From an uncultured Alphaproteobacteria bacterium (GTDB taxonomy: Bacteria > Pseudomonadota > Alphaproteobacteria > UBA2966 > CAIVPW01), in contig CAIVPW010000058.1 of the NCBI GenBank assembly GCA_903907895.1, positions 2,393 through 66,392 of the forward strand: 64,000 bases of DNA. The letters are read 5' to 3'. Position numbers and translations under genes: made by a program. Every line of letters starts with the position of its first letter. The first letter of the stretch is position 1. The notes under the pieces were generated by a model, which had not been told where the DNA came from, did no database searches, and was given only the letters and a program-made list of their open reading frames with translations. Below are positions 9,306 to 29,192 of the stretch, piece after piece.

Positions 9306-10572
9306 CGAAATCGAACTAGTCATCGACGCGGTGGGCGGGCACGGCGATGGCGTCGCCACAACCGACCAGGGCAAGGTGTTTGTCCCCTTCACGGTTCCCG
9401 GCGACCGCGTTCGCGCGCGCCTCGGCATGAAAGGGAAGGAGGGAACGCCTGCGGTCCTCCTTGAGGTCATGGCGGCTGGAGCGCATCGCATTGCGCCGCC
9501 CTGTGCGCACTTCGGTGCCTGCGGCGGGTGCGATCTGCAGCAATGGCATGCCGCAGAGGCACTGGACTGGAAGCGGGCCCAGGTCGTCGCCACCCTGAGG
9601 CAGCGGGGGCTGGACGCGCCCGTCGAGCCGGTCGTGGCAACGTTACCCGGCGAACGCCGTCGCGCACGGCTCTCCGTTCGGCGCGATGCAGAGGTTGTCG
9701 AGGTCGGGTTTCGTGCGCGTGGCAGTCACGCGATCATCGATGTCGCTAGCTGTGCGTTGCTCGATCCGGCGCTCGGAGCGCTGCTGGCTCCATTGCGGAA
9801 GCTGACATCCGATGTGTTGCAGCGCCGCGAAGAGGTTGCCGTTGAGCTGACTCTGACTGATTCGGGCATCGATCTGTTGTTCGAGCGTAGCCACGAGCCT
9901 ACGCCCGCTCAACGCTCGGCATGGGCGAAGTTCGCAACGACGAACCGGGTGGCGCGCATATCGTGGCGCGCGGACAGCGAGGGGGAGCCCGAACTGCTCG
10001 CGAAGCTGCAGCAGCCGGCGATGACCTTTGGTGGAATATCCGTCGAACTGCCGCCCGGCACGTTCTTGCAGGCGAGTGCGACGGCGGAAGCGGCGTTGGT
10101 CGCGGAGGTTGTGGCTGCGGCCGGGAAGGCAAGGCGAGTCCTCGACCTCTATTCCGGCTGCGGTACCTTCGCGCTGCCGCTTTTGCAGCGTGCATCCGTT
10201 CACGCGCTCGAGGGCAGTGCCGCGGCCGTGGCCGCCCTGAAGAAGGCCGCAGGCGCACGTCTGACGGTGGAGCAGCGCGACCTGGAGCGCCGGCCTTTGC
10301 AGAAGGATGAGCTGAAGAAGGTCGACTTTGTGGTGTTGGACCCGCCGCGCGCTGGCGCGCGGGCGCAGTCCGAGGCACTGGCCGCGTCAGCGGTTCCGGT
10401 GATTGCCTACGTGTCGTGCAATCCGGCGACCTTTGCGCGGGATGCACGGACGTTGGTGGACGGCGGGTATGCGCTTTCGCGGGTCGTGCCGGTCGACCAG
10501 TTCCTGTGGTCCGCCCACGTGGAACTCGTGGGCATCTTCCAGAAGTCGCCTAACGGTCGGCGCGGAAGGTAA
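9271..10572 (+). CDS. rlmD: 23S rRNA (uracil-5-)-methyltransferase RumA/RlmD family
   Basis: TRAM-like N-terminus (GDGVATTDQGKVFVPFTVPGDRVRARL), a Cys cluster (CAHFGACGGCDLQ) and a SAM-dependent methyltransferase C-terminus (LDLYSGCGTFALPL, VLDPPRAG). The N-terminal boundary is uncertain and overlaps the tlyA 3' end. Confidence 0.8.
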   Translation: MNSSSPRTSAPDEIELVIDAVGGHGDGVATTDQGKVFVPFTVPGDRVRARLGMKGKEGTPAVLLEVMAAGAHRIAPPCAHFGACGGCDLQQWHAAEALDWKRAQVVATLRQRGLDAPVEPVVATLPGERRRARLSVRRDAEVVEVGFRARGSHAIIDVASCALLDPALGALLAPLRKLTSDVLQRREEVAVELTLTDSGIDLLFERSHEPTPAQRSAWAKFATTNRVARISWRADSEGEPELLAKLQQPAMTFGGISVELPPGTFLQASATAEAALVAEVVAAAGKARRVLDLYSGCGTFALPLLQRASVHALEGSAAAVAALKKAAGARLTVEQRDLERRPLQKDELKKVDFVVLDPPRAGARAQSEALAASAVPVIAYVSCNPATFARDARTLVDGGYALSRVVPVDQFLWSAHVELVGIFQKSPNGRRGR

Positions 10573-11152
10573 CCACCCGGTAGGCGTACCAGCCGACGAT
10601 CAGCAGGGTGACGGCATTGGACACTGGATTTACCCAGTTCTCCACATGATCGTACTGGTCGGCGAGCACGTAGCCCGCGCCGGCCAGGATGAGGATCCAC
10701 GCCAGCGATCCGACCGCCGAATACAGCAAGAACTTCAGGAACGGCATCGCCACGATCCCGGCCGGTACAGAGATGAGCGTGCGCACCGTCGGCACCACAC
10801 GCCCGAACAGCACCGAGAGGGAGCCGTAGCGGTCGAACCAATCGCGGGCCTGGTCAACCTCGCGTGGTGTGACGGTCATGAAGCGCCCGTAGCGGCTGGC
10901 TGCGATTGCCTTGACCCGGTGGAAACCGAAGGCGCGGCCGATGAAGTACCAGAATGCGGCACCGACCACGGACCCGAGCGTGGCCACCGCAATCACCATG
11001 CCGAACGAAAGGTCGCCCCGCGCGGCGGTGAAGCCGGCGAGTGGCACGATCACTTCGGACGGGATCGGCGGAAACAAGTTCTCGATCAGCATCAGCACGA
11101 AAAGCGCGCCATAGCCGCCGGTTTCCATGAAACCGGTGATCCAGTCAAACAT
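10550..11152 (-). CDS. DedA family inner-membrane protein
   Basis: 200-aa hydrophobic ORF with DedA/SNARE-associated patterns (LMLIENLFPPIPSEVIVPLAGF, RYGRFMT, LISVPAGI). Confidence 0.8.
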   Translation of the reverse strand: MFDWITGFMETGGYGALFVLMLIENLFPPIPSEVIVPLAGFTAARGDLSFGMVIAVATLGSVVGAAFWYFIGRAFGFHRVKAIAASRYGRFMTVTPREVDQARDWFDRYGSLSVLFGRVVPTVRTLISVPAGIVAMPFLKFLLYSAVGSLAWILILAGAGYVLADQYDHVENWVNPVSNAVTLLIVGWYAYRVVTFRADR

Positions 11153-11165
11153 CCTTGCCTTTCGA

Positions 11166-12236
11166 TTAACCGACTTGGGCGCGGTGCAGCAGCAGCTGGT
11201 CGGCCAGCACGCAGGCCATCATGGCTTCGCCGACCGGTACTGCGCGGATGCCGACGCATGGGTCGTGGCGGCCCTTGGTGACGACGTCGGTCTCCTCGCC
11301 GGAGGAAGTGATCGATCTGCGCGGGTTGGGAATGCTGGACGTCGGTTTCACCGCGAACCGCACCACGACCTCCTGGCCGCTCGAAATACCACCCAGGATG
11401 CCACCGGCATGGTTCGAGCCGAAGCGGACCTTGCCACCGTCCATGCGCATCTCGTCGGCGTTCTGCTCGCCGCGCAGGCGCGCCGAAGCCATCCCCGCGC
11501 CGATCTCGACGCCCTTCACGGCGTTGATGCTCATCATCGCGGCGGCGAGGTCGGCGTCGAGCTTGCCGTAGATAGGAGCGCCCCATCCGGCCGGAACACC
11601 TTCTGCGACCACCTCGATGACAGCGCCAATCGAGGAGCCCGCCTTGCGGACCTCGTCGAGATAGCCCTCCCATTTCCCGGCGGCCTGCGGGTCAGGGCAG
11701 AAGAATGGATTGCGGTCGATTTCGTCCCAATCCCAGCGTGTGCGGTCAATGGCGTGCTCGCCGATCTGGATGAGCGCGCCACGGATGCGTACGCCTGCCC
11801 CCAGCACCTTGCGCGCGACGGCACCGGCCGCGACGCGCGAGGCGGTCTCGCGCGCGGAGGCGCGCCCCGAGCCGCGGTAGTCGCGGATGCCGTACTTCTG
11901 GTCGTACGTGTAGTCGGCGTGGCCGGGACGGTATTTGTCCTTGATGTCGCCGTAGTCCTTCGACCGCGCGTCCACGTTTTCGATCATCAGGCTGATCGGC
12001 GTACCTGTGGTCTGACCCTCGAATACGCCCGACAGGATCCTCACCTCGTCGGGCTCACGGCGCTGGGTCACAAAGCGCGATGTGCCCGGCTTGCGGCGGT
12101 CGAGAAACGCCTGAATGTCCGCTTCTGCGAGCGGCAGCCGGGGTGGCACACCGTCGACAACGCACCCAATGGCCGGACCATGACTCTCGCCCCACGTCGT
12201 GAAGCGGAAGACCCGGCCGAAGGTGTTGAACGACAT
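11166..12236 (-). CDS. aroC: chorismate synthase
   Basis: Start at [32 protein letters not shown]... The 63-aa upstream extension in the ORF track is discarded. Conserved chorismate synthase motifs run throughout. Confidence 0.9.
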
Positions 12237-13057
12237 TAGTGGTCGCCAGCGACGGCGATGTCGGGAGCATCCACCCGCTTCATGCCGTTGACGTGGTAGC
12301 CGGAGTCGACGTGATGGATTTCGCCCGTGACGCCGCGCGACAGGTCGCTCAGCAGATACAGGGCCGAGCACCCGACTTCCTCGATCGTCACGTTGCGCTT
12401 CAGCGCAGAGTTCAGCTCGTTCCACTTGAGGATGTAGCGGAAGTCGCCGATGGCCGAGGAAGCCAGCGTGCGGATCGGGCCGGCCGAGATGGCGTTGACG
12501 CGGATGTTGTTGCCGCCAAGATCCATCGCCAGATAGCGCACGGAAGCTTCGAGCGCGGCTTTGGCCACGCCCATGACGTTGTAGTGCGGCATCACCTTCT
12601 CAGCGCCGAAGTAGCTGAGCGTGATCATGCTGCCGCCCTTGGTCATCAGCTTTTCGGCGCGCTGCGCCATTGCGGTGAACGAGTAGCAGCTGGTCGCCAT
12701 GGTGACGGCAAAGTTCTCGGACGTGGTGTCGACGTAGCGTCCCTTGAGTTGGTCCTTGTCGGAGTACGCGATGGCGTGCACCACGAAATCGATGGTGGGC
12801 CAATCCCGTGCCACCGTCTCGAAGGCGCGGTCGAGGTCGGCTGGTTTGGTCGCGTCGCACAAGAAGACGCGTTCGGAACCGAGTTGCGCCGCGAGCGGCC
12901 GGACGCGCTTCTCCAGCGCTTCGTTGTAGGCGCTGAACGCGATCTCGGCGCCATGCTCCGCGAGCACCTTGGCGATGCCCCAAGCGATGGAACGCTCATT
13001 GGCGAGGCCAAAGATGACTCCGCGCTTGCCGGCCATCAAGGGACCTGGCTGGGTCAT
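12236..13057 (-). CDS. fabI: enoyl-[acyl-carrier-protein] reductase (NADH)
   Basis: [23 protein letters not shown] glycine-rich NAD-binding site and the SDR catalytic Y/K region ([16 protein letters not shown]). AAGGAG lies 6 nt upstream of the first ATG. The stop overlaps the aroC start (TAATG). Confidence 0.9.
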
Positions 13058-13151
13058 GCAACGCTCCTTGCGCGGTGAAGGGGGTGGCGGGCAGTGCGCC
13101 CGTGGCGGCGCATCCTACAGAAGGATGGATCGATGGCAACGGCCCTCGGCG

Positions 13152-14090
13152 CTAGCTACGCAAGCGTTTGCGTGGGTCGTAGGGGTGTCGTTTCTCCCAG
13201 TCACCCAGCGCCTTTTCAAGATCGCTGTCCACCGCATCCGGCAGGGTGACCAGCAGGCGAACCATCTGGTTGCCCTCCGGTTTGCCCTTGCGGCGAATGC
13301 CCTGGCCCTTGAGGCGCAAGTTGGTGCCCGTGTTGGAACCCGCCGGGATGTTCAGGGTGACCGTGCCATGGATCGTCGGCACCTCGACCTTGGCGCCCTT
13401 CACGGCTTCCAAAAGGGTGACCGGCAGGTCGATGCCGATGTCGTCGCCCTTGCGCTGGAACGTCCCGTCGGCGCGCACGGTCACGAGGATGCGCAGATCG
13501 ACATCCTTGTCGCGCAGCCGGATGGTCTGCCCGCTTTCGATGCCGGCCGGGATCGATACGTCGAAGCTGCGGCCATCGACAGTGATGCGCTTGGTGCCAC
13601 CGACCGCGGCATCAAGGAAGTCGACTTCCATCTCGAATTCGCCGGCGGTCGAAGGCTCCGCTTGCGGACGCGGACCCGCACCTGCGCCGCCACCGGTGAA
13701 GCCGCCCCGGAAGGCAGAGAACAGGTCGTCGAAGTTGAAGTTCATGCCGAACTCATCGAAGCCGCGCTGATCGCCCGCACGTCCGCCCGGTCCCCCGCGA
13801 AAGCCGCCCGCGCCCGGTGCGCCGGCATTGCCCCAGGGGCCGCCGCCGAATCCCGCATGCACGCGCTCACGGCCATCGGCGTCGATCTCGCCCTTGTCGA
13901 AGCGCGCGCGCTTCTTTTCGTCGCCGACGATGTCGTAGGCGGCGTTGATCTCCTTGAAGCGGTCCGCGGCGGCCTTGTCCCCCGGCCTTCGGTCGGGGTG
14001 GTTCTCTTTGGCCAGCGTGCGGTATTTCCGCTTGATGTCCGCCTGGGGCGCCGTACGCGGAATGCCCAGGACTTCGTACGGATTGCGCAT
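13152..14090 (-). CDS. DnaJ-like protein (J domain + DnaJ C-terminal domains, no Zn finger; CbpA-type)
   Basis: N-terminal J domain (YEVLGIPRTAPQADIKRKYRTLAKENHPDRRPGD), a Gly/Phe-rich linker and C-terminal DnaJ substrate-binding domains. No CxxCxGxG repeats. Confidence 0.8.
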   Translation of the reverse strand: MRNPYEVLGIPRTAPQADIKRKYRTLAKENHPDRRPGDKAAADRFKEINAAYDIVGDEKKRARFDKGEIDADGRERVHAGFGGGPWGNAGAPGAGGFRGGPGGRAGDQRGFDEFGMNFNFDDLFSAFRGGFTGGGAGAGPRPQAEPSTAGEFEMEVDFLDAAVGGTKRITVDGRSFDVSIPAGIESGQTIRLRDKDVDLRILVTVRADGTFQRKGDDIGIDLPVTLLEAVKGAKVEVPTIHGTVTLNIPAGSNTGTNLRLKGQGIRRKGKPEGNQMVRLLVTLPDAVDSDLEKALGDWEKRHPYDPRKRLRS

Positions 14091-14164
14091 CGCCTGTTAC
14101 CCGATTCGTGCGGGCGGAAACCCACACTGCTTGAAGTCCGATGTGGACATTTCTATCAGCAAAC

Positions 14165-15307
14165 TCAAGGCCTGACCGGGGCCGTCGCCGGAGTAGCCAT
14201 CGTCCGGGCTGCCCACAGCCGGGTGGCGCGCTCGAATTGATCGGTGTCCAAGGTGGGGCCTAGCCGTTCGACGCCCGCCGCGGCCTCGACGTGGCCCTGG
14301 ACGGCGGCCTGGGCCCACCACGCCACCGCGGCCGCAGGGTCGGGAGGTACGCCACGACCCTCGGCGTACAGCGTCCCGAGCAGGTACTGGGACTCTGGCT
14401 CCCCACCCACGGCCGGGCCATAGAGGGCGGCCGCCGCACTCGCCCAGTCGCCCCGGCTGAAAGCGGTGACCCCCGCCTGAGCCCGGTCGGCCAGGGCAAT
14501 CCGGTTCAGGCCGCGCCGTGCGTCCGCCGCCTCCGCCACCAGCAGGGCGGGCGCGGGCGGCTCCAAGGCGCCGAGCAGGCCCGGTCGTGGCGGCTCAGGC
14601 ATTGCCGGCTCGGGCGGCGGAAAATTGGCCTGCATCGGTTGTTCGCCGGCGGTTAGGCCGCGCACGATGGCCCAGCTGAGTTCGGCCGAGAGTCGGGCGT
14701 TCGGACTCTCGGCGGGTGCACCGCCAAGGCGCTGCAGCCGGTTGCGGGCCGACACCACGCGGTCAATGGCGCCGGGCTGGCCCGCTTCGGCCGCCAGCAC
14801 GTACCAGCCGATCGCCGTCCGGTCATCGGGATCGACCCCAAGTCCGCGCTCGAACAGTAGCCCGAGATTGTAGAGCGCCGGAGCGAATCTGCTTTCGGCG
14901 GCGCGCAGCAGCCACGCCTGCGCCGCGACGTAATCCGACGCCAGGCCTTCGCCCGCGAGGTACATCATCGCGATGCTGTTCGCGGCAGAAGGATCGCCTG
15001 ACTCCGCTGCCAGGCGATACCAGTAGAAGGCGGCGCCCGCGTCCTGGGTAACACCGCGCCCGGATTGCAGGAGCAGGGCGATGTTGCGTTGCGCGTCGGC
15101 GTCGCCTCCGTGCGCGAGCGGTAGCCATGCCGAGTAGGCCGCGCCGAAGTCGCCCGCCTCAAACGCTGCGACCCCAACTTCGTACGCCGATGGCTCGGCT
15201 GCCGAGGTTGGGGTCGCAGGCAAAAGCGCCAAGCTCAAAAGCGCGGTACCAAGCCCGATGTTCCGCACCCAGAGCAGAATGCGCCCGGGGCCACGGTAAT
15301 TGCTCAT
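14165..15307 (-). CDS. secreted Sel1-repeat (TPR-like) protein
   Basis: N-terminal signal peptide (LGTALLSLALLPATPTSAAEP), repeated A..Y..AAE.G. / A...LG.LY Sel1 units and a central Pro-rich linker (PPPEPAMPEPPRPG). Confidence 0.75.
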   Translation of the reverse strand: MSNYRGPGRILLWVRNIGLGTALLSLALLPATPTSAAEPSAYEVGVAAFEAGDFGAAYSAWLPLAHGGDADAQRNIALLLQSGRGVTQDAGAAFYWYRLAAESGDPSAANSIAMMYLAGEGLASDYVAAQAWLLRAAESRFAPALYNLGLLFERGLGVDPDDRTAIGWYVLAAEAGQPGAIDRVVSARNRLQRLGGAPAESPNARLSAELSWAIVRGLTAGEQPMQANFPPPEPAMPEPPRPGLLGALEPPAPALLVAEAADARRGLNRIALADRAQAGVTAFSRGDWASAAAALYGPAVGGEPESQYLLGTLYAEGRGVPPDPAAAVAWWAQAAVQGHVEAAAGVERLGPTLDTDQFERATRLWAARTMATPATAPVRP

Positions 15308-18573: not shown

Positions 18574-18721
18574 GCTTGAGTTTCGCGCAATGTGTTGACT
18601 GTAGAAGCGTGCGCAACGAACGCGCTGCACAGCGCGTCTTCCGCGCAACTTTGTGCGAAAATGCGCCAAGCGAAGTGAAATATCGGTTGAACACCCGAGT
18701 CGCCTCCCTATCATTTGGGGT

Positions 18722-20011
18722 ATGCAATATCGGGTAGTAGCGTTCGCGTTTCTCGCCGCCCTCCCGGGCATCGTCGGTACAACGCAGGCTGCCGTCCCCG
18801 GCACCCTCCCAACGCAAACGACTAAGAACGACCGTGCCGACCAGGGCGGTCCGATGCGCGAGTGGATGCAGCTTGCCGAAGAAGGCGATGCGCGCGCGCA
18901 GTTCAATGTTGGCCTGATGTACGAGGCCGGCGTAGGTACCAAGCAGGACTTCGCCGAAGCGATTCGCTGGTACCAACTCTCTGCGGCACAGAGTTACCCG
19001 GACGCCGAGCGTGCGCTGGGCTTGATGAACGAATTCGGTCGGGGTTTGACCAAGAATCCCGAGGAGGCTGCGCGGTGGTATCGCCTCGGAGCCGACCACG
19101 GCAGCGCGAAGGCCGCCTTCAACCTGGGCAACGCATATCGGCAGGGCACGGGCGTGGCGCGCGACGATACGGAGGCCGTGCGCTGGTACCGCATCGCCGC
19201 CGAGCGCGGTGACATCGATGGTCAGGTTGCTGTCGGCGTGATGTACGGCATCGGCCGGGGTGTCGAGCGCAACGCGGCCGAAGCGGCGCGCTGGTACACG
19301 GCGGCGGCGGAAGGCGGCGATGCACGGGCGCAATTCAACCTAGGCCTGTCGTTCGAGCGCGGCGAAGGTGTGCCCCAGGATTTCACGCAAGCGCTGGCTT
19401 GGTATCGCGCGGCAGCGGAGCAAGGGGATGCGAGCGGTCTCCGCGCCGTAGGCGTGATGTACGCCCTCGGCCGCGGCTTGCAGCGCGATCCTGCCGAGGC
19501 CATGCGCTGGTACGCGCTGGCGGCCGACAAGGGCGATGTCATCGCGCAATTCAACCTCGCGGCGGGCCTCGATGCCGGCCGCGGCGTGACGCAGAATCAG
19601 GTCGAAGCAGCACGTTGGTACCGCAAGGCGGCCGAGGCTGGTTTGGTGAACGCGCAGTTCAGTCTGGCGCTCGCCTACGAATCCGGCACGGGCGTTGCGG
19701 CCGACCTCGCGGAGGCCACTCGGTGGTTCCTGCGGGCGGCGAACCAGGGCGACGTCCCCTCGGCGCGCAAGGTCGCCGGATTTTATGAGGCCGGCACCGC
19801 TGTACCGCAGAACTTCGAGGAGGCGGTGCGCTGGTACACCGTCGCGGCCACCAAAGGCGACGTGTTTTCCCTCGAGCGCCTGGGCGACCTCTATTGGGCG
19901 CTCGGCCGCCAGGACGACGCCCGAGGGGCTTGGCAGCAGGCCCAGGGCCGCACAACGGAGCAGGCGGCACTCGATCGCCTGCAGCGCAAGCAGGCGGGAC
20001 AGACGAACTAG
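18722..20011 (+). CDS. secreted Sel1-repeat protein (about 10 Sel1 units)
   Basis: Signal peptide (MQYRVVAFAFLAALPGIVGTTQA), then many repeats of the AQFNLG.MYE.G.GV..D..EA.RWY..AA..G pattern. Confidence 0.8.
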   Translation: MQYRVVAFAFLAALPGIVGTTQAAVPGTLPTQTTKNDRADQGGPMREWMQLAEEGDARAQFNVGLMYEAGVGTKQDFAEAIRWYQLSAAQSYPDAERALGLMNEFGRGLTKNPEEAARWYRLGADHGSAKAAFNLGNAYRQGTGVARDDTEAVRWYRIAAERGDIDGQVAVGVMYGIGRGVERNAAEAARWYTAAAEGGDARAQFNLGLSFERGEGVPQDFTQALAWYRAAAEQGDASGLRAVGVMYALGRGLQRDPAEAMRWYALAADKGDVIAQFNLAAGLDAGRGVTQNQVEAARWYRKAAEAGLVNAQFSLALAYESGTGVAADLAEATRWFLRAANQGDVPSARKVAGFYEAGTAVPQNFEEAVRWYTVAATKGDVFSLERLGDLYWALGRQDDARGAWQQAQGRTTEQAALDRLQRKQAGQTN

Positions 20012-20138
20012 TAGCGCTCAGCTTGTGAAGGGGGCGCCCCGTACGCCTTGCTAACCCGGCGTCTGGCTGACCATACTTCGTCCGCGCGTAGGGGCCATGG
20101 CGCCGTGCTGTGGATGAGGCGCGCTTGTGGAGGCACCA

Positions 20139-20384
20139 ATGAACAAGATGATCGCCGCTATCCTCGCGGTTGGCATGATGGTTTTCGCCGGCGTCGCTTC
20201 GGCCGCCGACGTGAAGGGCGCGATCACTGCGGTGAACGCGCAGGCCCGCACCGTCACTGTCAACGGCGTGGCGTACACCTTCCCGGCCAACGTTGACATG
20301 GCCGGCCTGGCCGTGGGTCAGACCGTCAACCTGACCTACGCGACCGCCAACAACGTCAACACCGTTTCGAAGGTCACGAAGTAA
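20139..20384 (+). CDS. small secreted protein, DUF1344-like (paralog 1)
   Basis: MNKMIAAILAVGMMVFAGVASA signal peptide, then ADVKGAITAVNAQARTVTVNGVAYTFPANVDMAGLAVGQTVNLTYATANNVNTVSKVTK. GGAGG 7 nt upstream; strong terminator follows. Confidence 0.7.
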   Translation: MNKMIAAILAVGMMVFAGVASAADVKGAITAVNAQARTVTVNGVAYTFPANVDMAGLAVGQTVNLTYATANNVNTVSKVTK

Positions 20385-20413
20385 GTTTCGCTCTTACTTC
20401 TCCAACGAAGAAC

Positions 20414-20445
20414 GGGCGCGCCTTGCGGCGCGCCCGTTTTCGTTT
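20414..20445. terminator. bidirectional rho-independent terminator
   Basis: GGGCGCGCC-TTGC-GGCGCGCCC hairpin followed by GTTTTCGTTT. Sits between the convergent paralog 1 and the large membrane protein. Confidence 0.7.
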
Positions 20446-20460
20446 GGGGAAGCAGTTCCG

Positions 20461-23058
20461 CTACTGCGGCTGCTTCACTTCGACCTTGATCGAAGTGATC
20501 TGCTCGATGCCCTTTGGGAACAGACCGAGTTGGTCCCACTTCAGCGCGCTGAACACGTTGGAGAAGTCATCGGTCCACGTTCGGACAGCTTTCACCTCGC
20601 CGATGTCTCCCCACGGCAGATCGCCTTCGCGTAGCGGCCTCAGGTCCTGCGCCGTGCGGCCGAGTACGACCCACGTGGTTGGCAGGGCAAAGAACGTGGC
20701 CGGGTTCGGGCTGAAGTCGACGGTTAGGGCCGCAAGACTCGCGTCCTTGGCGAGGTCAGCGACTACCGGCAGCAAATTCACGAACGTGTTGGTGATGTGC
20801 ACCATCAACTTGCCGTCGGGCTTCAGCTTGCGGAAGTAAAGCTGGATGGCTTCGCGCGTCAGAAGGTGAACGGGGATGCCGTCACCCGAGAACGCGTCGA
20901 GGAACAGCACATCGAACGTGCCGTCGGGCTCTTTCGCCACCGTCAAGCGTCCGTCGCCAAGAACGACATCCGAGCCGCACTCCTGCAGGAAGCGGAAGTA
21001 CTGCGGATCCTGCGCCACGCGCTCGACCACCGGATCGATCTCGTAATACGTCAGGCGATCGTTCGGGCCCATGTAGCAGGCGAGTGCGCCGGCACCGAGC
21101 CCCAGCACGCCGACTCGCATCGAGTCGTGACCGGTCGCACGCATCTGCCGGAAGAAGTGCCCGACCGGGCCGCGGTCGGTGTAGTAGGACACCGGCAGGC
21201 GCGGCAGGTCCATGAACTGCACGCCATGGATCGTCACGCCGTGCACGAGATAATGGAACCGGCTGGTGGTAGTGGTGAGGGGGCCGGGCGTGGTGTCTAC
21301 GCGATTGACGTAGATCGTGGTGACGCCGAAGAACGAGCGAATACGCGCGAGGCGATCTTCGCTCAGACCAAAGATGCCGCGGAACCGTTCTTGCTGCGCC
21401 TCGTTTAGTCCGATCGATGCCAGCGCACCGCGTAGTGTCGGGCCCGAGGGCAACAGCATATCGGGCGTCAGCGCCAGCAGCAGCGCCAGCACGGCGAGGG
21501 CGAACCGCACCGGCCGGCGACGGCCCATCCAGATCACCGCGACCAGCAGCAACACCGTAACGAGCAGTTTGCCCGTGTTCTCAAGGCTCGTGGCCTGCAC
21601 GGAGAAGTTGTCGCCGAGCAGCGAGTTGAACGCGGAATAGAACCAGCCGTAGACGGTGAACGCCGCGGCGATCAGGAACGTGCGCAGGCGGCCGCCGGCA
21701 ACAATCAGCCAAAGGATGAACGGCAGGGCGAAATCCCAGAAGCGCGGGTGCAGCAGGAGCCGGCCAACCGGCACCGTCTGCAGCGACTCCCGCACTTGCG
21801 CGACGGGCTTAAGGCTGGATATCCACCGACCGAATCGTGTCGAAGGCAGATTGCGCGGACGGAGGAGAAGAGCGAGCAGCAGCGCGATCGGATACTCGAA
21901 CACGCCGTCGAACACGAGCGGAGCGATGATCGCCGACAGAATGCCGCCGAGCACTCCGCCCAACGACATCCAGAAGTAGAACTCCGTCAGGCGCTCTGGC
22001 GGCGGGCGCAGGCGCGCGAGCTCCCCGTGCAGCACCATGGTGCTCACGAACATGGCCGCGAGGTGCAGGACGAGCAGGACATAGATCTGCGACGTCTCGA
22101 AGAAGATGGCGACGACCGGGACGATGACGAGCTGCGCAGCCAGCCAGAACCGTGGCGGGATGAGCGGCTTGCGTGCGAACACGAAGACGAACGTGAGCAG
22201 GTACAGAGTGAGTGGGATGATCCACAGGAAGGGCACCGCGGCGATGTAGCTGCCGATGTGCAGTGTTGAGCCCAGCAGCAGGGCCGACGGCACGAGGGCC
22301 AGCAACGTCCAGCGTCCTCGTACGCCCCACGTGACTTCCTTCGTCACGTAATTGTCGAGCGACTCCGCGGACGAAGCCTGCTCGGGGCGGAAACGCTTCC
22401 ACAGTAGGACGGCGCAGGTGAACAGCGCCGCGACCAGGAATGCGTACCCGATCATCCACGAGATGCTCTGCGCACGTACGCCGAGCAGCGGCTCGACCAC
22501 CACCGGGTAGCTGAGCAGCGCGAGCATGCTGCCAAGGTTGCTGGCGCCGTAGAGGAAGTACGGGTCACCCGACCAAGCGTGGTCGGTATTGGCGAACCAC
22601 TTCTGGATGAGCGGCGACGTTGCGGAAACCGCGAAGAACGGCAGGCCGACCGACACCGTCAGCACGCCGAGCAGCCACGGGATAGGCGAGTCCACCGGCG
22701 GCGGCGCCTCGCTGCCGGTCCACTGGAGGAGGCCGCCGGTGGCGCCGATGCCGATCGGCAGCACCAGGAACGCCGATACCAGCACGAACGCGTGCAGAAT
22801 GGTCTGGCGCTTGAGGCCCAGCAGCCGCGTGCTCAGGTGGGCGTACAGGTAGCCGGCCAGCAATACGGCCTGAAAGAACACGACCGACGTATTCCATACG
22901 GCTGGCGAGCCACCCGCGCGCGGCAGCACCATCTTCGTGAACATGGGCTGGACCGCGAACAGCAGGAACGCGCTCAAGAAGATCGTGATGGTGTACAGCG
23001 GCAACGTGAAAGAACTCACGCTGGCGCCCGAACGGCGGCCGGCAACGGTAGTGGACAT
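20461..23058 (-). CDS. polytopic membrane protein fused to a C-terminal spermidine-synthase-like (aminopropyltransferase fold) domain
   Basis: About 865 aa from MSTTVAGRRSG.... The N-terminal two-thirds is highly hydrophobic (more than 12 TM segments). The C-terminus has VGVLGLGAGALACYMG...YEIDPVV...LDAFSGDGIPVHLLT motifs of the spermidine synthase family. The ORF-track start at 23223 is rejected (rare codons, no RBS). Confidence 0.8.
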   Translation of the reverse strand: MSTTVAGRRSGASVSSFTLPLYTITIFLSAFLLFAVQPMFTKMVLPRAGGSPAVWNTSVVFFQAVLLAGYLYAHLSTRLLGLKRQTILHAFVLVSAFLVLPIGIGATGGLLQWTGSEAPPPVDSPIPWLLGVLTVSVGLPFFAVSATSPLIQKWFANTDHAWSGDPYFLYGASNLGSMLALLSYPVVVEPLLGVRAQSISWMIGYAFLVAALFTCAVLLWKRFRPEQASSAESLDNYVTKEVTWGVRGRWTLLALVPSALLLGSTLHIGSYIAAVPFLWIIPLTLYLLTFVFVFARKPLIPPRFWLAAQLVIVPVVAIFFETSQIYVLLVLHLAAMFVSTMVLHGELARLRPPPERLTEFYFWMSLGGVLGGILSAIIAPLVFDGVFEYPIALLLALLLRPRNLPSTRFGRWISSLKPVAQVRESLQTVPVGRLLLHPRFWDFALPFILWLIVAGGRLRTFLIAAAFTVYGWFYSAFNSLLGDNFSVQATSLENTGKLLVTVLLLVAVIWMGRRRPVRFALAVLALLLALTPDMLLPSGPTLRGALASIGLNEAQQERFRGIFGLSEDRLARIRSFFGVTTIYVNRVDTTPGPLTTTTSRFHYLVHGVTIHGVQFMDLPRLPVSYYTDRGPVGHFFRQMRATGHDSMRVGVLGLGAGALACYMGPNDRLTYYEIDPVVERVAQDPQYFRFLQECGSDVVLGDGRLTVAKEPDGTFDVLFLDAFSGDGIPVHLLTREAIQLYFRKLKPDGKLMVHITNTFVNLLPVVADLAKDASLAALTVDFSPNPATFFALPTTWVVLGRTAQDLRPLREGDLPWGDIGEVKAVRTWTDDFSNVFSALKWDQLGLFPKGIEQITSIKVEVKQPQ

Positions 23059-23377
23059 AACGAAACGCAACCTCCCCGAGGTGACCCGCGTGGGCCACCG
23101 GACATTCGATAGGCATGCCTTAAGCTCGCTTGCCCGCTCCGGCAAACGGCCGTTCTGCGACGATGAAGGCTTGCCCCCCGACGGGGCGAGTATGCCATGG
23201 GAAAACGGCACGGTGCCACGCACCGCGGGCAGAAACGCTTACGAACCCTGGGCTGAGCGGCTTGCAGCGGCCAACGGTTCCTGTAAGGAATGGGGCCCGG
23301 GGAAGCTTGTGGAGGAGGGCTCGCGGCCGTGCGGGCTGTCTGGGGCGTCCCGATAACGCGGAATGGGGAGTACTCGA

Positions 23378-23632
23378 ATGAAGAAGATTTTTGCTGGCCT
23401 GGTGGGCGCCTCCATGGTTCTGGCCGCCGGCGCCGCCGCCGCTGCCGAAGTCAAGGGCGCGATCAAGAACATGAACCTGGAAGCTCGCACCGTGACGGTC
23501 GAGACGACCACGGTTACCGTTCCGGCCGACATCAGCCTTAGCGGCTACATCGTCGGCACGAACGTCGTGATCACCTACACCACGGCCGGTACGGCCAACA
23601 CCGCGACCGCAATCGCTAAGGTTGCGAAGTAA
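23378..23632 (+). CDS. small secreted protein, DUF1344-like (paralog 2, divergent)
   Basis: MKKIFAGLVGASMVLAAGAAAAAEVKGAIKNMNLEARTVTVETTTVTVPADISLSGYIVGTNVVITYTTAGTANTATAIAKVAK. GGGGAG 8 nt upstream of the ATG. Confidence 0.65.
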   Translation: MKKIFAGLVGASMVLAAGAAAAAEVKGAIKNMNLEARTVTVETTTVTVPADISLSGYIVGTNVVITYTTAGTANTATAIAKVAK

Positions 23633-23652
23633 CTCGCGTCACTGGCTGAAAA

Positions 23653-23690
23653 GGGCGGGTGCGGCATTGCCGCCCCGCCCTTTTTTTGTT
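23653..23690 (+). terminator. rho-independent terminator
   Basis: GGGCGGGTGCGGCA-T-TGCCGCCCCGCCC hairpin followed by TTTTTTT. Confidence 0.75.
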
Positions 23691-23935
23691 GCCTCTTACA
23701 ACCGTAAGTAGATCACGCGGCGCGATCTGCGTGTGTCCATGGGGCATCGTTTCGTCCCCTTGAAGCCTTCGGGCGCCACAACAAGTAGCGTTTAGGCCCA
23801 CGGCATGCACGCTACGCGCGGTGTCTTGCAAAGGCTCGGCCTTCCGTGTGAAATCGCGCTGGGAGGCACGAGCAAGATCCCGTCAATTGTGGCGGCGACT
23901 TGGTCGTTCCCTATTACGAAGACAGGAGCACAACT

Positions 23936-24181
23936 ATGAAGCGCGTTATTGCTGCCCTCGCCGGTGCGTCGATGCTGTTGGTTGCTGGCGCTGCGGTTGC
24001 CGCCGACGTCAAGGGCGCCATCACTGCCGTGAACGCCACGGCCCGTACCGTCACCATCAACGGCGTGGCTTACACCTTCCCGGCGAACGTTGACATGGCT
24101 GGCCTGGCCGCTGGTCAGACCGTCACCCTGACCTTCGCCGCCGCGAACAACGTGAACACGGTTTCCAAGGTCACGAAGTAA
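23936..24181 (+). CDS. small secreted protein, DUF1344-like (paralog 3)
   Basis: MKRVIAALAGASMLLVAGAAVAADVKGAITAVNATARTVTINGVAYTFPANVDMAGLAAGQTVTLTFAAANNVNTVSKVTK. AGGAG 9 nt upstream. Confidence 0.7.
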   Translation: MKRVIAALAGASMLLVAGAAVAADVKGAITAVNATARTVTINGVAYTFPANVDMAGLAAGQTVTLTFAAANNVNTVSKVTK

Positions 24182-24211
24182 GCTAACCCTTACTCGTAAG
24201 GGCCCAGAAAA

Positions 24212-24250
24212 GGACGAGTGCGCAGACTGCGCACTCGTCCTGTTCTTTTT
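24212..24250 (+). terminator. rho-independent terminator
   Basis: GGACGAGTGCGC-AGACT-GCGCACTCGTCC hairpin followed by TGTTCTTTTT. Confidence 0.75.
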
Positions 24251-24395
24251 GCGGCACCGTCTGCGCGGTTGCCGCCGATATAAGCAGGCCATTTCAGGCA
24301 TTGGTTTCTGCGATCGCAGCAATAGGTTCAATACCTCTCCGGTATCTCCGCGCGGCGCTTGCAAAGCGGTCCGATTGCAGGTGATATCTCCGGCG

Positions 24396-24455
24396 GGGAG
24401 GCAAAGCAGTCTCGCCGAGGTGGCGAGAGTCCTTTGTCCCTCCCGTATCAGGAGG
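24396..24455 (+). promoter_or_regulatory. candidate SD-sequestering leader (anti-anti-SD GGGAGG / anti-SD CCTCCC / SD AGGAGG) upstream of paralog 4
   Basis: GGGAGG at 24396-24401, internal hairpin TCTCGCC-GAGGT-GGCGAGA at 24410-24428, CCTCCC at 24439-24444, and AGGAGG at 24450-24455 placed 9 nt before the ATG. Confidence 0.4.
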
Positions 24456-24464
24456 AATCAGTTC

Positions 24465-24710
24465 ATGAAGAAGGTATTGGCTGCCGTTACCGGTGCTGCG
24501 CTGCTGCTCGCCGCTGGCGTTGCTGTTGCCGCCGACGTCAAGGGTGCCATCACTGCCGTGAACGCGCAGGGCCGCACCGTGACCATCAATGGCGTGACGT
24601 ACACGTTCCCGGCGAACGTTGACATGGCCGGCCTGGCCGTTGGTCAGACCGTCAACCTGACCTACGCCGCCGCGAACAACGTCAACACCGTTTCGAAGGT
24701 GACGAAGTAA
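24465..24710 (+). CDS. small secreted protein, DUF1344-like (paralog 4)
   Basis: MKKVLAAVTGAALLLAAGVAVAADVKGAITAVNAQGRTVTINGVTYTFPANVDMAGLAVGQTVNLTYAAANNVNTVSKVTK. AGGAGG 9 nt upstream. The in-frame TTG-initiated extension from 24249 is rejected. Confidence 0.7.
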   Translation: MKKVLAAVTGAALLLAAGVAVAADVKGAITAVNAQGRTVTINGVTYTFPANVDMAGLAVGQTVNLTYAAANNVNTVSKVTK

Positions 24711-24744
24711 TCGATCGCTAGAGCTTTCTAGCCGACGATCTTCG

Positions 24745-24788
24745 GGGGCGGGTGCGCTGGCAACGGCGCACCCGCCCCTTCTTTTTTT
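24745..24788 (+). terminator. rho-independent terminator
   Basis: GGGGCGGGTGCGC-TGGCAACG-GCGCACCCGCCCC hairpin followed by TTCTTTTTTT. Confidence 0.75.
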
Positions 24789-24801
24789 GGAGCGAGGGTA
24801 C

Positions 24802-25587
24802 GTGGCAGACCACCGCGAACCGCCCGATCCCACTGCCGCCCAAGCTGCCGGTAGTGAAGCTCCTGCACGCAAGCCCGTGACCGGCACGATCCGGCCCCGC
24901 CTCGGCCTCGGCGCGCGCCTGCGCAATTACTTCCTTACTGGCGTTCTGGTGACTACGCCGATCGTCATCACCAGCTACGTCGCCTGGATCGTTGTCCGGT
25001 TTGTGGACAATCGCGCCGACCGGTTGCTGCCGCCGGAATACAACCCCGGCACCTATCTGCCGATCTCCATTCCGGGCCTGGGCCTGGTGGTCTTCATCAT
25101 CCTGCTGACATTGATCGGCATGCTGACGACCGGATACGTCGGCCGCCTGTTCACCCGCGCCATGGACGGCGTGGTCGCGCGCGTCCCGGTGCTGCGATCG
25201 ATCTACGGCGCCACAAAGCAGATTCTGGAAACGCTGATGTCGGGGAAGTCGTCGTTCCGCGAAGTGGTGCTGATCGAGTTCCCGCGCCTCGGTCAGTGGT
25301 CCGTAGCGTTTGTGACTGGCTCGGTGACATCGGACATTCCCGGCGGCGAAGAGCTCGTGAACGTCTTCATCCCCACGACGCCCAATCCAACCAACGGATT
25401 CCTGATCTTCGTGCCGCGACGCGACCTCGTTCCCCTGGATATTTCCGTCGAAGCGGGCGTGAAGCTGGTCATTTCGGGCGGCATCGTCTCGCCCGAGCAC
25501 CTCAAGGTGCGCGCCCCGGCCATTGGCGACGCGCTGCTGCGCGTTGCCGCCCGTTGCCCGGCACCGCCGCCGGGAAACGTGGCCTGA
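24802..25587 (+). CDS. DUF502-domain membrane protein
   Basis: Two N-terminal TM helices (FLTGVLVTTPIVITSYVAWIVV, GLGLVVFIILLTLIGMLTTGYVG) and the conserved PNPTNGFLIFVPRRDL segment. Start is ambiguous (TTG 24787 or GTG 24802, with GGAG upstream). Confidence 0.7.
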   Translation: MADHREPPDPTAAQAAGSEAPARKPVTGTIRPRLGLGARLRNYFLTGVLVTTPIVITSYVAWIVVRFVDNRADRLLPPEYNPGTYLPISIPGLGLVVFIILLTLIGMLTTGYVGRLFTRAMDGVVARVPVLRSIYGATKQILETLMSGKSSFREVVLIEFPRLGQWSVAFVTGSVTSDIPGGEELVNVFIPTTPNPTNGFLIFVPRRDLVPLDISVEAGVKLVISGGIVSPEHLKVRAPAIGDALLRVAARCPAPPPGNVA

Positions 25588-25589
25588 CG

Positions 25590-25937
25590 TCAGCGGCTGG
25601 GTGAGGCAGGCGTCTTTTGAACGGCGGCGTTCGGTGCGAACGAGCGCTGCCCGGTGAGGTCGCGTTCGACGACTGCCACGCGCGGCAGGAAGCGGTAGAG
25701 GGTCCACGCCATGATCGGCGCGGCAATGACCGCCGACGCGGTACCGAGCAGTGCCAAATTGGTGACGAACCAGTCGCCCGGGAGCCATCCGAAGGCTGCC
25801 ATAAGCCAAGTCAGTGCGCCGAGCCCGGCGAACGCGAAGCTCCACAGCAAAGGAGCGCCCAGCGTCAGAGAAACGACGGCAACGAGCACGATGTTGGTCG
25901 TGGGATTGCCGGACGCGCCGGCCTGCGAATCGGTCAT
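25590..25937 (-). CDS. hypothetical small membrane protein
   Basis: 115 aa from MTDSQAG... with 2-3 predicted TM helices. No recognisable family. Convergent with the DUF502 gene (2-bp gap). Confidence 0.4.
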   Translation of the reverse strand: MTDSQAGASGNPTTNIVLVAVVSLTLGAPLLWSFAFAGLGALTWLMAAFGWLPGDWFVTNLALLGTASAVIAAPIMAWTLYRFLPRVAVVERDLTGQRSFAPNAAVQKTPASPSR

Positions 25938-26202
25938 CGGATACTCCTCGTCCTCTAATGTCCCGGCGCGGCCAGGTCTGCAAGCACGAACCTGGATCGC
26001 GGGCACGGACCCTGCCACTTGTATGTCGCTCTGACCGAACTACTACAGCTTGGTGCGGCGGTGTCGCATTTGCGCCTGGCTGGGGGCGGGACTATACCGC
26101 TGCCCGACAACGGCACCCGCCGGCCCTCCCGCATATATCCCCGCGACCTGCAGGCCGACCCGCGCCGCTCCGAGCCGTTTCACGAACCGGAGTAGCCTTC
26201 CT

Positions 26203-28089
26203 GTGACAGCAGTTCCTGCCGACCATTCCAACGCCAAGCAACAGTTAGCCGTCGTGGCCCTGGGTGCCCTTGGCGTCGTTTACGGCGATATCGGCACTTC
26301 GCCGCTCTATGCCCTCCGCGAGTGCTTTTCCGCCGCCACCGGGGTAGTGCCCACGACCGAGAACGTGCTCGGCATCCTGTCTCTCGCATTCTGGACCGTC
26401 ACTGTCCTGGTGACACTCAAGTACGTGACGCTCGTGTTGCGCGCTGACTACCGCGGCGAAGGCGGGGCGATGGCGCTGATGGCACTCACCCGGCGGGCGG
26501 TGGGCTCGAGCAATCGGTTGCGCGCCTTCGTGTTGGCAGCGGGCCTTATCGGTACTGCATTGTTCTTTGGTGACGCGATGCTGACGCCCGCGATATCGGT
26601 GCTCAGCGCCATCGAAGGCCTAGAGATTGCGACACCGGTGTTCCGGCCTTACGTCGTTCCGGTTGCGCTTGCCGTTATCGTCGGGCTGTTCCTCGTGCAG
26701 AGCCGCGGCACCGGCAGTGTGGGCCGGCTGTTCGGCCCGATCATGTTGCTCTGGTTCACCGTCCTCGGCCTGCTCGGGCTCTGGATGATCGTGCGCAGCC
26801 CGCATGTGCTTGCTGCCATCAACCCCATGCACGCCGTGCAGTTCGTGGTCGAGGAAGGCTGGCACGTATTCATCCCGCTGGGCGCGGTCTTCCTTGCAAT
26901 CACCGGCGCCGAGGCGCTCTACGCCGACCTCGGTCACTTCGGTGCGAAGCCGATTCGGACTGCCTGGTTGTCTGTAGCGATGCCGGGCCTGCTGCTGAAT
27001 TACTTTGGCCAGGGCGCCCTCGTCCTCGAGGACCCAACCGCAACGCGGAACCCGTTCTACCTGCTCGTGCCGGAACCGTTTCTCTATCCGATGGTAGCGC
27101 TCGCAACGGCGGCGACTGTGATTGCGTCGCAGGCGGTCATCTCCGGCGCCTTCTCTCTGTTCAACCAGGCGATCCAATTGGGGCTGGCCCCACGGGCGGA
27201 GGTTCGCCACACGTCATCGTCCGAAATACGGCAGGTCTACCTGCCACAGATCAACTACGCGCTGCTGATCGGCGTCGTGGCTCTGGTACTGACTTTCGGC
27301 TCTTCCAGCGAGTTGGCGGCCGCATACGGAATCGCGGTGAGCGGAACGATGGTCGTCACATCCATTCTAGCCATGTTGGCGGCCATTCACCTGTGGCATT
27401 GGCCTCGCGTCGCAGTGGTCGGGGTCTTCGGCACCCTGCTGGCGGTCGACCTGATCTTCTTTGCCGCCAACGCGCTGAAGGTCTTCGAGGGTGGCTGGGT
27501 GCCGCTGGTGATCGCGGCTGTCATCTACATCAGTTCGACGACGTGGATCCAGGGCCGGCACGCGCTCTATGTGAAACTCGCTGCCGAGAGCGCCACGCTT
27601 GAGGATTTCCTGCGCAGCGTCGGTCCCAAGGTGCCGCGCGTTCGCGGGACCGCTGTCTATCTGGCGCGACTGGGGGAGACCGTGCCGCACGCGCTGCTGC
27701 ACAACATCAAGCACAACAAGGTCCTGCATGAGCGCGTTCTGCTCATGACCGTCATCAACGAAGAAATTCCAGTGGTGCCGCGCGAAAGCCGGGTCGAAGC
27801 CCACGAGCTTGAGAAGGGATTCTGGCGCGTGACGGTGCGCTACGGCTTCCTGCAAAGCCCGAACCTGCCACGCGCGCTGGGTCAGCTGTCGCCGCAATTG
27901 GAGATCAACATCCACGACACGAGCTTCTTCCTCGGCCGCGTGACATTGATGCCTGCGCTGAAGCCGCTTATCCCGCGTTGGCGGCGCAGCCTCTACTTTG
28001 CATTGGCGCGCAACGCGTCATCTGCGCCGGACTTCTTCCGCATCCCGACCGATCGTGTCGTCGAGGTAGGCGCGCAGATCGCGCTGTAG
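26203..28089 (+). CDS. kup: KUP/HAK/KT family potassium transporter
   Basis: 628 aa from a GTG start (GGAG 10 nt upstream). Conserved N-terminus LAVVALGALGVVYGDIGTSPLYAL, 12 TM helices and the cytoplasmic tail. The ORF-track N-terminal extension is discarded. Confidence 0.85.
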   Translation: MTAVPADHSNAKQQLAVVALGALGVVYGDIGTSPLYALRECFSAATGVVPTTENVLGILSLAFWTVTVLVTLKYVTLVLRADYRGEGGAMALMALTRRAVGSSNRLRAFVLAAGLIGTALFFGDAMLTPAISVLSAIEGLEIATPVFRPYVVPVALAVIVGLFLVQSRGTGSVGRLFGPIMLLWFTVLGLLGLWMIVRSPHVLAAINPMHAVQFVVEEGWHVFIPLGAVFLAITGAEALYADLGHFGAKPIRTAWLSVAMPGLLLNYFGQGALVLEDPTATRNPFYLLVPEPFLYPMVALATAATVIASQAVISGAFSLFNQAIQLGLAPRAEVRHTSSSEIRQVYLPQINYALLIGVVALVLTFGSSSELAAAYGIAVSGTMVVTSILAMLAAIHLWHWPRVAVVGVFGTLLAVDLIFFAANALKVFEGGWVPLVIAAVIYISSTTWIQGRHALYVKLAAESATLEDFLRSVGPKVPRVRGTAVYLARLGETVPHALLHNIKHNKVLHERVLLMTVINEEIPVVPRESRVEAHELEKGFWRVTVRYGFLQSPNLPRALGQLSPQLEINIHDTSFFLGRVTLMPALKPLIPRWRRSLYFALARNASSAPDFFRIPTDRVVEVGAQIAL

Positions 28090-29115: not shown

Positions 29116-29192
29116 TGGTCGGGGAGAGAGGATTCGAACCTCCGGCCCCCACGTCCCGAACGTGGTGCTCTACCAGGCTGAGCTACTCCCCG
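29116..29192 (-). tRNA. tRNA-Pro (anticodon CGG)
   Basis: Reverse complement: CGGGGAGTAGCTCAGCCTGGTAGAGCACCACGTTCGGGACGTGGGGGCCGGAGGTTCGAATCCTCTCTCCCCGACCA. Cloverleaf with anticodon loop TTCGGGA, T-loop GGTTCGAATCC and an encoded CCA. Confidence 0.85.

Follow-up and report, generated by a model that had tools for sequence, protein, structure and literature searches.

The 64,000-nucleotide stretch of DNA analysed here (hereafter the window) encodes an intact 865-aa fusion of an MFS domain with a spermidine-synthase-like domain, located at 20461-23058 on the minus strand. This copy is an ordinary member of a very large, widespread and uncharacterised family. Judged by its residue pattern, the enzyme domain is probably a SAM-dependent amine methyltransferase, which we consider likelier than a polyamine synthase. 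Whether these proteins are methyltransferases tethered on the periplasmic side of the membrane, with a substrate supplied by the fused MFS domain, is in our view about evenly balanced. The gene and its immediate surroundings comprise the following features.

20461..23058, minus strand: coding sequence of the fusion protein, 865 aa, from the ORF list; stop codon at 20461-20463; 7,946 homologues
23059..23223, minus strand: 55-codon in-frame upstream extension, probably untranslated; not conserved with the L003 orthologue, and gene callers use 23058
23071..23077, minus strand: GGGGAGG, Shine-Dalgarno-like, 12 nt 5′ of the ATG; read from the sequence
20411..20445, no strand assigned: GC-rich hairpin, then a T-tract, in the interval separating the convergent DUF1344 gene from the stop codon of the fusion gene; read from the sequence

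The minus-strand open reading frame from 23223 to 20461 comprises 920 codons when counted from a GTG, and the ATG at 23058 yields the 865-aa form. An earlier note on this DNA had favoured this ATG, together with the GGGGAGG in front of it, and both hold: an identical 865-aa product was found in separate gene calls of two other assemblies (ENA and Logan contigs), and conservation with an orthologue of 74% identity (locus L003) starts at TTVAGR, which corresponds to residues 3-8 of the 865-aa form. The longer N-terminus from 23223 was rejected, since its 55 codons are unconserved in L003 and independent callers start at 23058. The hairpin with its T-tract is likely the terminator of the plus-strand DUF1344 gene and possibly terminates in both directions. 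A sigma-70 promoter scan of positions 19900-24900 returned zero sites, and two tRNAs were the sole Rfam matches in the window. The comparison with homologues indicates that the gene is real and under selection, because there is one copy of 99% identity, 7,946 homologues were scored (best E = 0) and frameshifts in relatives were not found. A pseudogene, for which frameshifts in close relatives had been named as the sign, was rejected, as the ORF is intact in all relatives and many residues are invariant.

Clustering at 50% identity on the membrane domain alone gives 13,068 clusters, of which the best 150 are mostly 700-870 aa long and hence fused. By record title, homologues occur in at least 593 species from about a dozen phylum-level groups, including Planctomycetota, Verrucomicrobiota, Acidobacteriota, Nitrospirota, methanotrophs, Alphaproteobacteria and others. 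Rhodopseudomonas pentothenatexigens and Kiloniella majae are culturable species among these carriers. That such fusions carry only generic annotation agrees with our searches: homologues of 42-48% identity are labelled 'fused MFS/spermidine synthase' by NCBI, and a literature search found no functional study of fused MFS/spermidine synthase or COG4262 proteins. The NCBIfam family NF037959 also goes by an older label, COG4262 ('predicted spermidine synthase with an N-terminal membrane domain'). The window protein shares the overall architecture of this family and reaches a whole-protein score of 50.7 bits against the curated cut-off of 40. However, the alignment is limited to positions 243-392 of the 480 in the model (aa 609-762 of the protein) and leaves the membrane half unaligned, so that the model matches the enzyme part only, whereas in the clade of the window protein the MFS core is complete, with 12 helices, and three more follow.

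The domains of the protein are, from the N-terminus:

21859..23007, minus strand: twelve-helix MFS-fold core (aa 18-400), with the invariant motifs LPxxGGSPAVWNT, DPYFLYGxSN, HGELARxRP and LTEFY
21454..21747, minus strand: three extra membrane helices (aa 438-454, 489-512 and 516-530); 180 of 193 anchored homologues have three
21370..21453, minus strand: linker insertion (aa 536-563), found in few aligned homologues, with a mean length of about 0.4 residues in the 85-sequence alignment
20524..21366, minus strand: spermidine-synthase-fold domain (aa 565-845), consisting of an N-terminal beta-hairpin subdomain and a Rossmann methyltransferase fold

As modelled with AlphaFold2 (pLDDT 87.9, pTM 0.89), the architecture is a 12-helix MFS-fold domain followed by three more helices and a complete spermidine-synthase-fold domain. 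The combination of a transporter-like with a spermidine-synthase-like domain, which the earlier note had proposed for comparison with PABS and MFS folds, is therefore borne out at the fold level. The N-terminal ~565 aa form a polytopic region of 15 hydrophobic helices (12 + 3), in line with the transporter-like membrane domain that had been anticipated, and the core has the twelve-helix fold with a long central cytoplasmic loop that is typical of MFS proteins. Compared with the MFS transporters MFSD10, VMAT2 and MdfA, the window protein adds three helices and the fused enzyme. Unlike in MFS transporters, conservation in its family is unusually high on both faces, and no Pfam match, including to the MFS models, was obtained for aa 1-540 even at E <= 10. 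The region of the three extra helices also contains a lineage-specific aromatic helix (aa 457-481), and a conserved RRPxRF turn is located at aa 513-518. A membrane-only homologue of 550 aa (P0122), whose enzyme part might be encoded by a separate gene, was also encountered.

The conserved elements of the enzyme half are:

21088..21102, minus strand: nucleotide-binding loop G653-L-G-A-G657, from HMMER alignment to 6o64 and 6qmm
21034..21042, minus strand: E673-I-D675, invariant in 85 of 85 homologues and aligned to EID of spermidine synthases
20953..20958, minus strand: G701-D702, invariant and aligned to GDG of 6o64 and 6qmm
20881..20898, minus strand: D721-A-F-S-G-D726, counterpart of the D-S-S-D acceptor/catalytic motif, with a two-residue insertion
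20557..20577, minus strand: W828-T-D-D-F-S-N834, invariant C-terminal motif, family-specific

The model displays the two subdomains of the PABS fold, i.e. a beta-hairpin subdomain and a Rossmann domain, and the motifs that had been read as aminopropyltransferase-like are all present, namely VGVLGLGAGALAC (aa 649-661), YEIDP (aa 672-676) and LDAFSGDG (aa 720-727). Residue conservation was counted in an alignment of 85 homologues, in which G653, G655, G657, E673, D675, D702, R704, A722 and P729 are invariant, and topology was counted in 193 anchored homologues. HMMER alignment to 6o64 and 6qmm places A656 in the slot of the acidic gatekeeper in the GGGDG of true aminopropyltransferases. The aligned site reads GGGDGG in true spermidine synthases (SpeE; PDB 1uir, 6qmm, 1iy9 and 2o06), whereas in the window family position 656 is T (30 sequences), V (22), A (20), I (10) or S (3), and D or E in none of the 85. 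The family further differs from SpeE in being fused to a membrane domain, in a score for Pfam Spermine_synth (PF01564) of 13.8 bits that falls under the gathering cut-off of 22.9, and in its counterpart of D-S-S-D, which reads D-A-F-S-x-D with two extra residues. Both Asp of this motif are kept (D721 in 80/85, D726 in 84/85) and align to those in D..SSD of 6o64. E673 and D702 align to the adenosine-binding Glu and Asp of SpeE; from this we infer that E673 would be the ribose-binding acid and that D702 would contact adenine, as the counterpart of the Asp in the spermidine-synthase GDG.

Aminopropyltransferases require the acidic gatekeeper of GxG(D/E)G, which contacts the amine of the aminopropyl group in decarboxylated SAM and keeps SAM out. 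Since this acid is absent in 85/85 homologues and the adenosine-binding residues and two Asp are kept, amine methyltransferase activity is probably the likelier function. The combination of a non-acidic gatekeeper with kept adenosine-binding residues is also the one expected from characterised enzymes (PMC3725402, PMC10349129). In a spermidine synthase, the exchange D103I abolished spermidine synthesis and brought a gain of methyltransferase activity (PMC3725402). Plant PMT, which N-methylates its amine with SAM, has a spermidine-synthase fold; it carries a hydrophobic residue instead of the gatekeeper Asp and retains the Asp that binds the diamine (PMC3725402). The window family is like it in fold, in a gatekeeper position without acid and in the kept second Asp. 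By contrast, the generic name 'spermidine synthase' and the chemistry implied in the earlier note would make the protein a true polyamine aminopropyltransferase with a polyamine transporter fused to it. We regard this as quite unlikely, as every homologue in the alignment lacks the gatekeeper acid, loss of which kills spermidine synthase activity in characterised enzymes (PMC3725402), and as the Pfam Spermine_synth score is sub-threshold. The best structural match, the 'probable spermidine synthase' of Corynebacterium glutamicum (PDB 3gjy), is likewise without this acid, although it differs from the window protein in being soluble and in having Ala at the position of D726, and polyamine-pathway genes are not prominent among the conserved neighbour clusters. 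The expected match of the C-terminal half to aminopropyltransferase families thus stands for the fold and for NF037959 but not for PF01564. An odd aminopropyl or other alkyl transfer is still conceivable, given the likeness of D726 to the diamine-binding Asp. It is also conceivable that the domain is a non-catalytic ligand sensor or a structural cap that regulates the MFS transporter, since transporters often carry fused regulatory domains and no substrate can be named. This is very unlikely, however, because the residues aligned to catalytic and cofactor positions are invariant or nearly so across very large evolutionary distances, which is not what one usually sees in a purely ligand-binding domain.

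An amine methyltransferase could act on either side of the membrane, and the assignment of the side rests on sequence statistics and the usual orientation of MFS proteins. In 180 of the 193 anchored homologues TM12 is followed by exactly three hydrophobic segments, which, starting at the cytoplasmic end of the MFS core, are predicted to bring the polypeptide out to the outer face. Predicted inner loops contain 18.0 K+R per sequence and outer loops 2.1, and the turn between TM14 and TM15 is R-rich (2.57 K+R vs 0.13 D+E in homologues). With an N-in MFS core, 15 helices and this positive-inside bias, the enzyme domain is probably periplasmic. GGSPAVWNT, which is conserved more strongly than any other motif, is predicted to be on the outer face. 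Pfam searches of ten unusually long homologues revealed one C-terminal TPR fusion only, which does not indicate a side. Alternatively, the methyltransferase might face the cytoplasm and the MFS domain be an importer or flippase, by which a lipid or solute amine is brought inward and modified with cytoplasmic SAM. Such a logic can be likened to that of LplT-Aas, a lysophospholipid transporter/acyltransferase pair; it would fit the fold and cofactor evidence equally well and, SAM being present only in the cytoplasm, would make a new transport activity unnecessary, and many invariant residues (DPYFLY, HGELARxRP, LTEFY) are on the predicted cytoplasmic face. We nevertheless hold it to be unlikely, as it needs an even number of helices from an N-in start, against the 12 + 3 segments observed, and as the charge bias would be broken at two R-rich loops.

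A periplasmic enzyme domain suggests that the MFS domain may feed it a substrate, possibly SAM. In the mechanism that we propose, the N-in MFS core and the 15 membrane helices would anchor the enzyme domain at the periplasmic face, where it would act as a SAM-dependent amine methyltransferase comparable to plant PMT, METTL13-C and fungal NHMT, and the fused MFS domain would move a substrate across the membrane to it. SAM would be the most economical cargo, being otherwise confined to the cytoplasm, and candidate acceptors would be a protein N-terminus, a polyamine or a lipid head-group amine. More specifically, the MFS domain could hand cytoplasmic SAM directly to the periplasmic domain, which would then methylate an amine at the outer face, such as the N-termini of exported proteins, a lipid head group or an exported polyamine. 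We put this version forward tentatively and consider it rather doubtful. We are not aware of any SAM-dependent enzyme in the bacterial periplasm, and a literature search on 'periplasmic methyltransferase' yielded none, for which reason the prior for such chemistry is low. The plant Golgi SAM transporters GoSAMT set a precedent for MFS proteins that deliver SAM across a membrane to methyltransferases on its other side (bioRxiv 10.1101/2021.07.06.451061). This precedent is functional only, as specific similarity to GoSAMT was not detected. The fungal NHMT (AN4663) is a membrane-anchored methyltransferase of secreted proteins with Ile at the gatekeeper position (PMC10349129). It shares with the window protein an odd count of membrane helices at the N-terminus and, anchored by them, a spermidine-synthase-like domain without the gatekeeper acid, which is a methyltransferase in NHMT and probably in the window protein. 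The secreted proteins that NHMT modifies lie across the membrane from the cytoplasm (PMC10349129). Its anchor, however, consists of seven unique helices restricted to filamentous fungi and that of the window protein has an MFS fold; no sequence relationship was detectable between the two membrane parts.

The genomic neighborhood was surveyed by clustering all ORFs within 5 kb of the gene at 80 genome loci. No conserved operon partner was identified among these loci and no neighbour indicates a substrate; the best neighbour cluster, a sigma-54-type response regulator (14/80 loci), looks like lineage synteny. In the window, four DUF1344 genes flank the fusion gene on the opposite strand, one of them convergent (20127-20384) and three upstream of its start, with the nearest of these (23363-23632) divergent from it. 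This placement between convergent and divergent genes of a DUF1344 cluster had been described before and stands, but a functional tie does not, since the linkage is not conserved past the 74% relative. A search with the DUF1344 HMM detected such neighbours only in the window, in the 99% copies from other assemblies (L001 and L002) and in L003, where the part of the locus in common with the window has the same synteny; L008 (54% identity) and the other 78 genome loci lack such neighbours. The DUF1344 genes are thus neighbours by descent in this lineage and not conserved functional partners, and an association across the whole family was rejected. One might still regard the fusion protein as a dedicated modifier of these proteins, for example by N-terminal methylation, with all genes forming one functional unit. 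The products of all four have a signal peptide and, after its predicted removal, a conserved N-terminus, (A)DVKGAI, the arrangement is kept in L003, and the fungal relative NHMT modifies the N-termini of secreted proteins (PMC10349129). The confinement to a single syntenic lineage speaks against this, as do the separate terminators of the individual DUF1344 genes and the location of the fusion gene on the other strand, and we consider the idea most improbable.

If decarboxylated SAM is indeed unusable, as the gatekeeper position indicates, the annotation as 'spermidine synthase' is misleading, and these public labels mislead reconstructions of polyamine pathways in many environmental genomes. 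If the enzyme domain is periplasmic and fed by the transporter domain, the family would represent an unexplored class of envelope modification. Should the protein also supply its own SAM, this would be, as far as we know, the first demonstration of SAM-dependent chemistry in the periplasm of bacteria, and the family would be the bacterial equivalent of a fungal NHMT system paired with plant GoSAMT transporters.

Our analysis supported the ATG at 23058 as the start of the fused gene, which lies on the minus strand at 20461-23058 and encodes 865 aa, as the earlier note had described. This start is supported because the same protein was called identically in two further assemblies (99% identical) and because conservation with the protein of L003, a genome locus with a 74% identical orthologue, starts at residues 3-8 (TTVAGR). 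The open reading frame extends to 23223 (920 codons counted from GTG), and an N-terminus from that position was rejected: the 55 additional codons are unrelated between the window and L003, and the gene callers begin at 23058. The GGGGAGG pointed out previously does lie 12 nt upstream of the ATG, and all motifs quoted for the enzyme domain were found, at aa 649-661, 672-676 and 720-727. The gene is no pseudogene, a possibility that had also been raised: 7,946 of 8,000 scored candidates were homologous at E <= 0.001 (best E = 0), and relatives are encoded on at least 593 stretches of species-representative genomes.

An alignment of 85 homologues (mean column identity 39%) contains about 90 invariant columns, the majority of them in the membrane part, where they include the motifs LPxxGGSPAVWNT, DPYFLYGxSN, HGELARxRP, LTEFY and GGxxGG. 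The AlphaFold2 model built from this alignment (pLDDT 87.9, pTM 0.89) and the alignment itself gave the following features.

aa 18-400: twelve long helices with a central loop at 222-243 (AlphaFold2)
aa 438-454, 457-481, 489-512 and 516-530: additional helices (AlphaFold2)
from aa 565: alpha/beta domain, beginning with four beta strands (AlphaFold2)
aa 408-436, part of 457-481, and 536-563: insertions relative to most of the aligned family (alignment)

The last insertion, aa 536-563, corresponds to window positions 21370-21453. Foldseek matched the predicted structure to spermidine synthases (E 4.5e-7 to 1e-4) and to OxlT (E 7.7e-5), which bears out the proposed architecture of a polytopic membrane domain joined to a spermidine-synthase-like domain; as modelled, the membrane part adopts a genuine MFS fold, to which three helices are added. 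The NCBIfam model NF037959 ("fused MFS/spermidine synthase", cut-off 40 bits) was matched with 50.7 bits, confined to the enzyme half of that model. Pfam gave no significant match in the fusion protein (Spermine_synth 13.8 bits vs 22.9) and none on the membrane half even at E <= 10.

Both termini of a 12-helix MFS core are cytoplasmic. The loop charges agree with such a start and end of the core, with K+R averaging 18.0 in the predicted inside loops and 2.1 in the predicted outside loops over the 85 sequences. Exactly three further hydrophobic segments follow TM12 in 180 of the 193 homologues that could be anchored.

Charged residues in the loops after TM12 to TM15, anchored homologues
After TM12: K+R 3.24, D+E 1.40
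After TM13: K+R 1.69, D+E 2.10
After TM14 (turn of about 6 residues): K+R 2.57, D+E 0.13
After TM15: K+R 1.19, D+E 1.81

In aligned homologues the counterpart of the window-protein helix at aa 457-481 is a non-hydrophobic stretch averaging about 13 residues, and the helix is therefore read as a putative interfacial helix on the outer side. An N-in start followed by fifteen crossings places the enzyme domain in the periplasm, a prediction that we regard as fairly probable.

The probable chemistry of this domain is indicated by its cofactor residues. HMMER aligned the G653-L-G-x-G657 loop of the family to GGGDGG of spermidine synthases 6o64 and 6qmm, with A656 of the window protein at the site of the gatekeeper Asp. 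In characterised enzymes this residue holds the aminopropyl amine of decarboxylated SAM and presumably repels the carboxylate of SAM. Position 656 is T30/V22/A20/I10/S3 and acidic in none of the 85 homologues; judged by these sequences the family fails the gatekeeper test, and the aminopropyltransferase chemistry implied by the earlier note is unsupported. E673, D702 (within a GDG motif), D721 and D726 are invariant or nearly so; E673 would by homology be the ribose contact, and D721 and D726 align to both Asp of D-S-S-D with a two-residue insertion between them. The D103I exchange in Datura spermidine synthase abolished spermidine synthesis and created putrescine N-methyltransferase activity (PMC3725402), and the membrane-anchored fungal N-terminal histidine methyltransferase (NHMT), a SAM-dependent enzyme, carries Ile at the gatekeeper position (PMC10349129). 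From structure-function work on the pair of spermidine synthase and plant putrescine N-methyltransferase we infer that the domain is catalytically competent, binds SAM and methylates a nitrogen nucleophile. The counterpart of D726 in spermidine synthases holds the distal amine of putrescine (PMC3725402), and its retention hints, not decisively, that the acceptor bears a second cationic group.

An enzyme domain outside the cytoplasm would need SAM there, and the fused MFS domain would be the only obvious supplier. There are two precedents: plant Golgi methylation depends on putative MFS-type SAM transporters (bioRxiv 10.1101/2021.07.06.451061), and in fungal NHMT a spermidine-synthase-like methyltransferase acting on secreted proteins is joined to membrane helices that are odd in number (PMC10349129). 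The MFS domain is unusually strongly conserved on both faces, including GGSPAVWNT on the predicted outer face, a pattern that fits a small molecule as fixed substrate, passed on to the enzyme domain. One family representative, P0162 (1028 aa), carries a C-terminal TPR array (residues about 840-1012) beyond the enzyme domain, which may hint, though not decisively, at protein partners or a protein substrate in some members.

Four DUF1344/CusF-like genes, whose products carry signal peptides, surround the fusion gene.

20127-20384, 23363-23632, 23900-24181 and 24465-24710, plus strand: four paralogous DUF1344/CusF-like genes
20411-20445: likely hairpin terminator between the convergent DUF1344 and fusion genes
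20411-20445 (the same hairpin), 24211-24241 and 24744-24779: GC-rich hairpins with T-tracts, 3' of three DUF1344 genes

Given these hairpins, the three DUF1344 genes look like separate transcription units, not a single operon. The paralogues are small proteins and share 44-79% identity with the copy at 20127-20384, the first of the four, which is itself 92.7% identical to its L003 orthologue while flanking genes reach just 74-76%; such conservation is unusually strong for a protein of unknown function. The previously suggested link of the fusion gene to this cluster found no support. A DUF1344 HMM search of the loci recovered neighbours of this type in the window, in the assemblies that are 99% identical and in L003, and in no other locus; L003 shares the gene order Kup, DUF502, DUF1344 genes, phosphoribosyltransferase and CDF over the examined stretch. 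L008, a locus with a 54% identical relative, has a tandem paralogue in place of any DUF1344 gene, and when every ORF lying up to 5 kb from the gene was clustered across 80 loci, no conserved partner came to light. The lineage-limited hits and the lack of a conserved partner argue that cluster membership is inherited synteny and no evidence of function. Tandem paralogues of the fused gene occur in 5 of the 80 loci (L004, L008 at 10001-12505 and 12607-15006, L034, L047, L078), both copies with the GxGxG loop and a non-acidic gatekeeper position, most with DAFSxD and WTDD. Just upstream of the DUF1344 cluster lies a 452-aa ORF with nine Sel1 repeats (18653-20011, plus strand; Pfam E = 2.9e-80). 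G+C is 0.635-0.640 at 20001-28000, a stretch spanning the cluster, the fusion gene, the DUF502 gene and kup, slightly below the 0.648-0.689 of most of the remaining window. The sole Rfam matches in the window are tRNA-Pro(CGG) at 29116-29192 and tRNA-Val(CAC) at 51470-51544, both on the minus strand.

NF037959 already covers this architecture, and some homologues bear the JGI label "predicted membrane-bound spermidine synthase"; our literature search found no functional study of the family. The window gene is a further member of a known, uncharacterised family, to which our analysis adds the MFS fold with three extra helices, the gatekeeper failure and the predicted extracytoplasmic enzyme domain. 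The window copy itself is nothing special; the interest lies in the size of the family and in the testable idea that its members may be periplasmic methyltransferases.
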